Part shown: positions 35,403-35,670 of the stretch, piece by piece | Position numbering within the stretch: position 1 is the stretch's first letter | How the letters are laid out: every line of letters starts with the position of its first letter | DNA from: a virus | Lineage: Duplodnaviria > Heunggongvirae > Uroviricota > Caudoviricetes | Strand: one strand, 5' to 3' | DNA length: 45,166 nucleotides | IMG/VR virus record: IMGVR_UViG_646311924_000016 | The notes under the pieces: model-generated | Database searches by the model: none | Seen by the model: only the letters and a program-made list of their open reading frames with translations | Told to the model about the DNA's origin: nothing | Program-made: the position numbers and the translations under genes

Positions 35403-35522
35403 TTGACAACATCCGTCACTGTCTGTCAGAAAATATACCGCCAGGCATAAGTATCATGTGAAATCCAACTATCCTTTTGAGCCAGCACCTCCCCACCGAA
35501 AGTCAGTGCTGGCTGTTTTTTT
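35403..35522 (+). ncRNA. Candidate small transcription unit A (promoter-like TTGACA plus intrinsic terminator)
   Basis: 'ttgaca' at 35403; terminator stem gccagcac / gtgctggc (35481-35488 / 35506-35513) plus T-run to 35522; paralogous to unit B. The -10 element is weak, so promoter assignment is uncertain. Confidence 0.25.
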
Positions 35523-35570
35523 CCTTAATAAAGCATCTGTAACTGAAACAATCCGCATATTGATAATATA

Positions 35571-35670
35571 TTGACAGGCATCATTGCTGTCTGTGAAAAA
35601 TAAGTCTCTACAAACATACAAGGCCTTTTAGCCAGCGTCTTCTTTCAGGTCAGTCGCTGGCTCTTTTTTT
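35571..35670 (+). ncRNA. Candidate small transcription unit B (paralog of unit A)
   Basis: 'ttgaca' at 35571, shared 'ctgtctgt..gaaaaata' and 'ccttttagccagc' blocks; terminator stem gccagcg / cgctggc (35631-35637 / 35655-35661) plus T-run to 35670. Confidence 0.25.

Follow-up and report, generated by a model that had tools for sequence, protein, structure and literature searches.

A PasA-family RNA and its paralogous neighbor in the nanS-p/holin spacer of a lambdoid prophage

How many small RNA (sRNA) genes, if any, does a lambdoid prophage carry in the spacer between its esterase gene, nanS-p, and its holin gene? The question is raised by IMGVR_UViG_646311924_000016, a stretch of 45,166 nt that we call the window and whose positions serve as coordinates throughout. 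Its late region is of the lambdoid prophage type and is read on the minus strand. There, a spacer of 445 nt separates nanS-p from the holin gene and carries two units of similar layout on the plus strand, antisense to the late operon. A first-pass annotation, made from the sequence alone, had seen in them a duplicated sRNA gene with weak -10 elements and had kept, as a fallback, structured elements on the late transcript. We find that the region very probably consists of two adjacent paralogous Hfq-binding sRNA genes, with partial read-through of the first terminator. Both RNAs have been described before, EcOnc51/52 in 2014 and PasA in 2021. What appears to be unreported is that these names denote different adjacent units, that the units are tandem paralogs with duplicated promoters, and that a further relative, PasC, combines modules of both. 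The existence of RNA on this strand, its ends, its binding to and dependence on Hfq, and its chimeric partners were established by the experiments of others on near-identical sequences, to which we tie the window by alignment.

Two units of one layout

As read from the sequence, unit 1 extends over 35397-35522 and unit 2 over 35565-35670, with an inter-unit spacer at 35523-35564 (all on the plus strand, like the parts of the units given below). In both, CTGTCTGT follows AATATnTTGACA at a distance of 10 nt; then come a -10 region rich in A, the block CCUUUU(G)AGCCAGC, a hairpin with a 17-nt loop, and a run of seven T residues (T7). Every element that the first-pass annotation had described for the pair is present at its coordinates. 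The promoter of unit 1, P1 (AATAT-C-TTGACA, 35397-35408, with its -35 hexamer at 35403-35408), and that of unit 2, P2 (AATAT-A-TTGACA, 35565-35576, with its -35 hexamer at 35571-35576), belong to the two exact matches to the 30-nt promoter pattern AATATNTTGACA-N10-CTGTCTGT in the 45-kb window, where 100 shuffles yielded none. The CTGTCTGT block of unit 1 (35419-35426) leads into CAGAAAATA, the two together covering 35419-35432, and that of unit 2 (35587-35594) leads into GAAAAATA, covering 35587-35600; each unit has a weak -10 candidate after an 18-nt spacer (TG-T-CAGAAA in unit 1 and TG-T-GAAAAA in unit 2). A palindrome in P1, TCTGTCAGA, was considered as an operator and dropped because it is not conserved in P2.

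Farther downstream come CCTTTTGAGCCAGC in unit 1 (35473-35486) and CCTTTTAGCCAGC in unit 2 (35623-35635). In unit 1, a U-rich CCUUUUG stretch together with the seed of PasA, GCCAGCACCU (35481-35490), occupies 35473-35490, and the seed overlaps the 5' arm of the terminator. This terminator, Ta (35480-35522), has a 9-bp stem, AGCCAGCAC/GTGCTGGCT, the arms of which (35480-35488 and 35506-35514) are 100% complementary and 17 nt apart; a G and T7 (35516-35522) follow. The terminator of unit 2, Tb (35630-35670), has a hairpin (35630-35662) with an 8-bp stem, AGCCAGCG/CGCTGGCT, then a mismatch and two further inner pairs, followed by a C and by T7 (35664-35670), which ends 1 nt short of the nanS-p stop codon. 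The stems had been annotated as 8 and 7 bp long; the hairpins are indeed there, and with the closing A-T pair included their stems measure 9 and 8 bp. An automated terminator scan missed Ta because its loop limit was 8 nt, as against the 17-nt loop found here. Each unit closes with a U-rich stretch, a hairpin, and a U-tail, which together form the usual Hfq-binding module (Otaka 2011, Ishikawa 2012).

The two units are paralogs. Local alignment of their 3' modules scores 33, compared with 14.7 +/- 2.1 (maximum 25) in 2,000 dinucleotide shuffles (z = 8.9), and column identity between the units in a MAFFT alignment is 79%; taken with the duplicated promoter pattern, these values place the likeness of the units above chance. 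There is no plausible open reading frame (ORF) in the region, and the sole plus-strand ORF, of 38 aa with a GTG start, crosses the terminator, in keeping with the earlier description of the units as antisense to the late operon and devoid of any ORF with a ribosome-binding site.

Conservation of the hairpins bears on the strand on which they act. Comparison of 16 distinct hairpins shows a C-G, U-A, or U.G pair at stem position 7 and an A-U or G-C pair at position 8. The RNAalifold consensus stem has 8 pairs, and two of these show compensatory double changes (C-G to U-A and A-U to G-C), so the covariation across related prophages that had been proposed as a check is seen at two of the eight stem pairs; pairing fails in a single sequence only, which has an A.C mismatch in place of the closing base pair, and the inner pairs are all intact. 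Had the hairpins instead been processing or stabilizing structures of the Q-antiterminated late mRNA, with the plus-strand promoters incidental, one could point out that this mRNA must include both unit sequences and that the reverse strand folds too (more stably for unit 1, at -27.2 versus -16.8 kcal/mol and z of -2.5 versus -1.2; about equally for unit 2). However, T-runs stand 3' of the hairpins on the plus strand only, the minus strand offering CAAAAGG and UAAAAGG; the U.G intermediates of the homologs would be A.C mismatches on the minus strand; and strand-specific probes and RNA interaction by ligation and sequencing (RIL-seq) find plus-strand RNAs. With T-runs, G.U wobbles, and detected RNAs all on the plus strand, we consider this explanation very improbable, and the fallback of the first-pass annotation is not supported as the main function.

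Unit 1 as PasA and unit 2 as EcOnc51/52

PasA was found in prophage PP2 of the enteropathogenic Escherichia coli (EPEC) O127:H6 strain E2348/69, between the esterase and holin genes and on the strand opposite the esterase (Pearl Mizrahi 2021, PMC8550237). It was verified by Northern blot, has a log2 fold change of -2.8 in an hfq deletion under activating conditions, and takes part in 41 RIL-seq interactions (PMC8550237); both it and PasC are discrete Hfq-dependent RNAs in E2348/69 by Northern blot and hfq deletion (PMC8550237). Table S6 of the same work assigns PasA a single 5' start, at 743499 on the minus strand of NC_011601, with a major 3' end at 743415 that gives 85 nt and a minor one at 743264 that gives 236 nt (PMC8550237). 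The whole spacer of the window aligns end to end with the PP2 locus, which has both units. Over 131 nt, unit 1 shares 90.8% identity with the PasA locus of E2348/69; its identity to prophage Sp12 of strain Sakai is 97.7%. By this alignment, the 5' end of PasA falls on 35438, its major 3' end on 35522, and its minor 3' end on about 35671, the base adjoining the esterase stop codon. The unit 1 RNA is thus an 85-nt member of the PasA family (35438-35522, plus strand), E2348/69 PasA mapping to exactly these alignment columns, and a read-through isoform of about 233 nt (236 nt in EPEC) spans 35438-35670 on the same strand. Both 3' ends predicted from the sequence agree with these data: 35522 is the mapped major 3' end, and the published 236-nt isoform ends within 1-2 nt of 35670, at the esterase stop codon. 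In the Northern blots, PasA was detected with a strand-specific probe that matches the reverse complement of window positions 35490-35514 at all but one base (24/25), so the detected RNA is on the plus strand in window terms.

PasA resembles unit 1 in its place between a SASA esterase and a class II holin, in strand, promoter block, seed, terminator, and ends. Its seed, GCCAGCACCU (fig. S5 and table S7 of Pearl Mizrahi 2021, PMC8550237), is kept in unit 1 at 35481-35490; unit 2 has GCCAGCGUCU at this place, without the seed. The two differ in the first ~35 nt of the RNA, where the window has CCGCCAGGCATAAGTATCATGTGAAATCCAAC and PasA has CTGCCATATAGAAGCAACATGTGAAGTACATC, the window version being like that of Sakai Sp12. 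This O157-type 5' variant is probably the O157-prevalent PasA-2 of a 2026 preprint (bioRxiv 10.64898/2026.05.13.724894), a name assigned from the fit to its description. P1 is unvaried in E2348/69 PP2 and PP5 and in Sakai Sp12. Across 37 tandem haplotypes, 69% of the sites vary in the 5' body of unit 1 (35438-35472), which is thus hypervariable, and the rest is conserved. The units accordingly carry the traits of the Pas family: the spacer position, homology to PasA, a terminator hairpin with covariation, and, in unit 1 only, the seed.

The same observations weigh on a simpler explanation, by which the hairpins are plain insulating terminators that block holin-side transcription into nanS-p, the RNA product being unimportant. 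The record of phage 434 (GenBank OL657226.1) indeed labels both hairpins, on the anti-late strand, as "terminator" only. Yet conserved promoters lie just upstream, the short RNAs are abundant, Hfq bound, and Hfq dependent, and the hypervariable 5' body of unit 1 suggests a diversifying function; of the explanations considered here, we find this one the hardest to credit.

Unit 2 is 95.6% identical to the region downstream of PasA in E2348/69 and 99.1% identical to both Sakai copies. In EPEC, it makes up the 3' part of the 236-nt minor PasA isoform, which ends at Tb. It also has a RIL-seq entry of its own, pasA.E2348C_0688.IGR, with 5 interactions (PMC8550237); the chimeras of this entry map to the unit 2 terminator, always as RNA2, a position typical of sRNAs, and join it to a few partners, such as escD. 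In Sakai, an enterohemorrhagic E. coli (EHEC), two peaks from UV cross-linking and analysis of cDNAs (CRAC) with Hfq, EcOnc51 and EcOnc52, are 77-78 nt long, have similar peak areas, and lie in prophages Sp12 and Sp4 (Tree et al. 2014, table S2, PMC4104026). They have been called PasA "homologues in EHEC" (Pearl Mizrahi et al., PMC8550237). After correction for a coordinate shift, EcOnc51 corresponds to about 35604-35680 of the window and EcOnc52 to 35605-35682, both on unit 2. The shift between NC_002695.2 and the coordinates of Tree 2014 is about +137/138 nt at Sp10 and Sp12 (1.94-2.24 Mb) and zero at Sp4 (1.18 Mb), as anchored by AgvB1 (+137 to +146 at 1.94 Mb), by the identical EcOnc10/EcOnc11 repeat (about +137/138 for Sp10 and Sp12), and by STnc100/EcOnc05 (zero at Sp4). 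Published EcOnc coordinates used on the current Sakai record put peaks on the wrong element. The placement of EcOnc51 on unit 1, which results when these coordinates are used directly on NC_002695.2, is ruled out by the anchor-derived shift. The EcOnc table has no peak at the position of unit 1 in Sp12, and a literature search of main texts yielded no mention of EcOnc51 or EcOnc52. The two are only predicted sRNAs, never followed up, and they cover the downstream unit, not PasA proper. With the PasA homology, the published RNA ends, the strand-specific probe, and the Hfq-CRAC peaks, the idea of a duplicated sRNA gene on the plus strand has thereby gained firm support.

The 2026 preprint holds that Pas copies are not tandem duplicates and that pasA copies are never closer than 22 kb (bioRxiv 10.64898/2026.05.13.724894); it does not discuss the promoters or the 236-nt form (bioRxiv 10.64898/2026.05.13.724894). 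Its 22-kb minimum overlooks the paralogous unit 168 nt downstream. The preprint also derives mature PasA by 5' cleavage of a longer transcript, whereas table S6 of PMC8550237 gives one 5' start and two 3' ends, which amounts to terminator read-through.

PasC, from prophage PP5 of E2348/69, belongs to the same family and combines P1 and a unit 1-like 5' body with terminator arms, AGCCAGCG/CGCTGGCT, identical to those of unit 2, which it also resembles in lying directly beside the esterase stop codon. Unlike the tandem of the window, PasC is a lone unit, its loop is shorter (type Tc), and unit 2 and PasC have in common only the terminator arms and the UUUUAGCCAGCGUC word. In its modular makeup PasC looks like a fusion of unit 1 with a unit 2-type terminator or, alternatively, like an unduplicated ancestor.

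A probable promoter for unit 2 and possible modes of action

For PasA as for PasC, the published 5' end is 30 nt downstream of TTGACA. At P1, TTGACA, 18 nt, and TGn-CAGAAA would form an extended -10 promoter matching the mapped 5' end at 35438. The same geometry recurs at unit 2 (TGTGAAAAA), and a start is therefore predicted near 35606, giving an RNA of about 65 nt (35606-35670, plus strand) whose 5' end is set by analogy with P1. Several comparisons favor, without proving, P2 as a working promoter that would start the unit 2 RNA by itself. In four diverged copies, among them an unbiased one on a pO26-type plasmid, the P2 block is free of substitutions over the ~40 nt from AATAT to AAGT, as against 14 variable columns among the remaining 68 of unit 2. 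P2 is retained in Sakai Sp4 and in the pO26 plasmid copy, which also keeps the inter-unit spacer. Unit 2 with P2 alone makes up 7 of 128 loci, Sakai Sp4 among them; the IMG/VR loci, having been collected with the promoter pattern, are biased to intact promoters. In Sp4, the insertion sequence (IS) IS629 has replaced all upstream of "CAATCCGCATATTGAT," so only unit 2 with its own TTGACA is left; this copy keeps 22 nt of native sequence upstream of the P2 -35, with IS629 beyond, and an EcOnc peak is reported there. Finally, the CRAC 5' edges (~35604-35605) agree with the start predicted from P2.

Several points, the bias of the IMG/VR set among them, weigh against the reading of the region as two sRNA genes. 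Both -10 hexamers match the consensus at three of six positions, and a simple sigma-70 scan called neither promoter, as could be expected from their early description as weak. The CRAC, RIL-seq, and 236-nt signals of unit 2, whose start is unmapped, could in principle come from read-through or processing of PasA. The chimeric fragments of unit 2 in EPEC amount to about 2% of those of PasA (119 versus 4,983); the CRAC reads derive from multicopy sequence, and their assignment to Sp4 versus Sp12 is insecure. The 5' end of PasA was itself estimated from coverage and band size, not by 5'-triphosphate mapping (PMC8550237), and the 2026 preprint proposes 5' processing of PasA (bioRxiv 10.64898/2026.05.13.724894). 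Moreover, the whole intergenic region is 90-100% conserved, so conservation alone discriminates poorly.

Some of these points, namely, the far smaller number of RIL-seq fragments in EPEC, the unmapped start, and the weak -10, also favor a reading in which only unit 1 is a gene and unit 2 is a decayed duplicate, its hairpin a back-up terminator and its sequence seen only in the long isoform or in fragments. Pearl Mizrahi 2021 does file unit 2 as the 236-nt PasA isoform with the same 5' start. On the other side, P2 copies P1 in register, has a perfect -35, and shows no variation among copies whose transcribed part varies; the CRAC 5' edges coincide with the predicted P2 start, with no peak for unit 1 in Sp12; and there is a peak at Sp4, where unit 1 is gone. 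We therefore hold a terminator-only unit 2 to be rather unlikely, although more probable than the other alternatives.

If the region does hold two sRNA genes, both RNAs would be transcribed in the lysogen opposite to the direction of the late operon. Sigma-70 RNA polymerase at P1 would start near 35438 and mostly stop at 35522, yielding the 85-nt PasA-family RNA, and a minority of the P1 transcripts would pass Ta and stop at 35670 as an RNA of about 233 nt. P2, the promoter copy 168 nt downstream, would most likely start the ~65-nt RNA of 35606-35670, which ends beside the nanS-p stop. Each RNA is envisaged as acting in trans by base pairing after binding Hfq via its 3' module. The seed of PasA, GCCAGCACCU in the 5' arm of the terminator, would serve for pairing with its RIL-seq partners, among them core genes, virulence genes, and the esterase mRNA at its 3' end; for unit 2, the few chimeric partners would be candidate targets. 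Most published PasA partners are trans targets, core-genome and virulence genes, including those of the type III secretion system and bfp genes (PMC8550237). The seed complement, GGUGCUGG, occurs in the 3' end of the nanS-p mRNA (35695-35702, minus strand) and also appears as a direct repeat, and the homologous sites in E2348C_0688 and E2348C_1246 are RIL-seq target motifs of PasA (PMC8550237). The word is not rare, with 9 plus-strand copies in the window, and hence its presence in the sequence alone proves no target. RNA duplex prediction against the nanS-p and lysis mRNAs returned only meaningless long duplexes.

The position of the RNAs invites a second possibility, that their main role is in cis, as antisense RNAs perfectly complementary to the late spacer from nanS-p to S, promoting cleavage or interfering with late transcription upstream of the holin gene, or else being mopped up by the late mRNA on induction. 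The geometry is suitable, since the spacer of 445 nt wholly contains both RNAs, which converge with nanS-p and lie upstream of S, and RIL-seq joins PasA to the 3' ends of esterase mRNAs. However, most published PasA partners are in trans, and the lysogen has scarce late transcript and abundant sRNAs, and we consider a primarily cis role quite unlikely.

A broader proposal, which we put forward as doubtful and only slightly better placed, combines the pieces: the RNA pair may constitute a lysogeny/lysis switch operating via the late mRNA, unit 2 being an unrecognized third family member with its own promoter, and the family may evolve through tandem duplications and unequal recombination events, one product being the fusion PasC. 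If so, the induced late transcript would titrate or destroy both RNAs and thereby turn their regulon off. Alternatively, the RNAs would direct cleavage upstream of the holin, so that lysis timing is tuned and nanS-p is uncoupled from the lysis genes.

Distribution, neighbors, and significance

Among 5,426 complete E. coli genomes, the spacer is present in 698, at a median of 5 places per genome, unit 1 in 686 and unit 2 in 676, each unit with a median of 3 copies per genome. It also occurs in 29 phage records, including H-19B, 434, and Stx1a phages. RefSeq has no sRNA annotation at the spacer matches, the few features listed being the neighboring esterase or DUF1737 coding sequence, and an Rfam scan of 35200-35750, at gathering thresholds and at E <= 10, returned no family for the region, only chance-level snoRNA-like matches. 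In a scan of one genome per species starting from the holin protein, the tandem was found only in Escherichia (E. albertii); holin homologs in Enterobacter, Klebsiella, Salmonella, and others lack it at the sensitivity of BLAST, no covariance-model search for remote members having been made. A scan of IMG/VR with the promoter pattern gave more than 120 loci. Their architectures comprise 68 canonical tandems (68 of 128 loci), in which 167-169 nt separate the two promoters, 24 single units of PasC type, 9 single units with a fourth type of terminator (Td), 7 with unit 2 only, and 2 with Td plus unit 2. In one tandem locus, the second unit, with a P2 body, carries the terminator of PasC, type Tc.

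The spacer is a hot spot of insertion and rearrangement (loci L005, L103, L107, L150, and L166; L095, L118, L137, and L139). Insertions of IS elements, IS629 among them, are found at or close to the inter-unit spacer or the terminator of unit 1, and the inter-unit spacer is a site of such insertions and of rearrangements in other prophages. At four loci, the DNA joined to unit 1 at the inter-unit spacer appears to resemble the right end of phage lambda, close to cos. Unit 2 with its promoter and an 87-bp 3' remnant of nanS-p is found on pO26-type plasmids of about 94 kb (L194, 3001-3239; pO26_EH031_2, NZ_AP027164.1), where it sits among IS600/IS66 elements, beside uilS. In the complete E. coli genomes, 100 plasmid places carry unit 2 and 6 carry unit 1.

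The convergent neighbor of the units, nanS-p (35672-37522, minus strand), encodes a SASA-family sialate O-acetylesterase (Pfam SASA, DUF1737, and DUF6645) equal in length to its E2348/69 and Sakai counterparts. The divergent neighbor of P1 is the gene of a class II (P21-type) holin, S (35020-35226, minus strand; Pfam Phage_holin_2_1, E = 1.4e-32). Past the holin on the late strand come a DUF1327 ORF and then the endolysin and Rz. The DUF1327 ORF (115 aa; 34671-35018, minus strand) is inserted between holin and endolysin and is also present in Sakai Sp12 (ECs_2260) and Sp10 (ECs_1963). Between P1 and the holin gene, the late strand has a hairpin resembling a strong intrinsic terminator (35281-35307, minus strand, with a T-run to ~35271), with 11 pairs, 7 of them G-C, followed by TTTTGTTTTC. 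It is located 50-80 nt upstream of the holin start codon, and the homologous site is a "terminator" in the phage 434 record. Such a hairpin would halt transcripts that are not antiterminated, e.g., those from moron promoters, ahead of the lysis genes.

On the other side, upstream of nanS-p, the sRNA genes AgvB (37674-37735, plus strand; Rfam, 96.5 bits) and STnc100 (37736-37926, minus strand; Rfam, 143 bits) are convergent and directly abut, in the arrangement given for moron sites by Tree et al. 2014 (PMC4104026). Together with units 1 and 2, this pair brings the number of Hfq-type sRNA genes around nanS-p in this prophage to at least four. The window also has a match to DicF RNA (40360-40411, plus strand; Rfam, 72.5 bits, with a gathering score of 48).

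The units recall the AgvB/AsxR anti-sRNAs (Rfam RF02702 and RF02703), which likewise are short, Hfq bound, prophage encoded, and antisense to the late operon at moron sites and in which, as here, the 5' part varies and the 3' part is conserved; AgvB itself has a copy 2 kb away in the window. However, AgvB/AsxR lie on the other side of nanS-p and have no sequence similarity to the units, their covariance models finding no match in 35200-35750 even at E <= 10, and the sponge function is theirs, not one shown for units 1 and 2. In arrangement, a likeness is offered by OmrA/OmrB and PrrF1/PrrF2, pairs of neighboring sRNA paralogs in which each gene has a promoter and a terminator of its own. Those are core-genome pairs with mapped promoters and regulators, whereas the second promoter of the present units is inferred.

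These RNAs are common and yet absent from Rfam and RefSeq, which means that automated annotation misses them. The gain offered here is a modest, incremental clarification, and it provides a basis for an Rfam family. More generally, the RNAs tie the carriage of Stx-type and related lambdoid prophages to the regulation of host and virulence genes.

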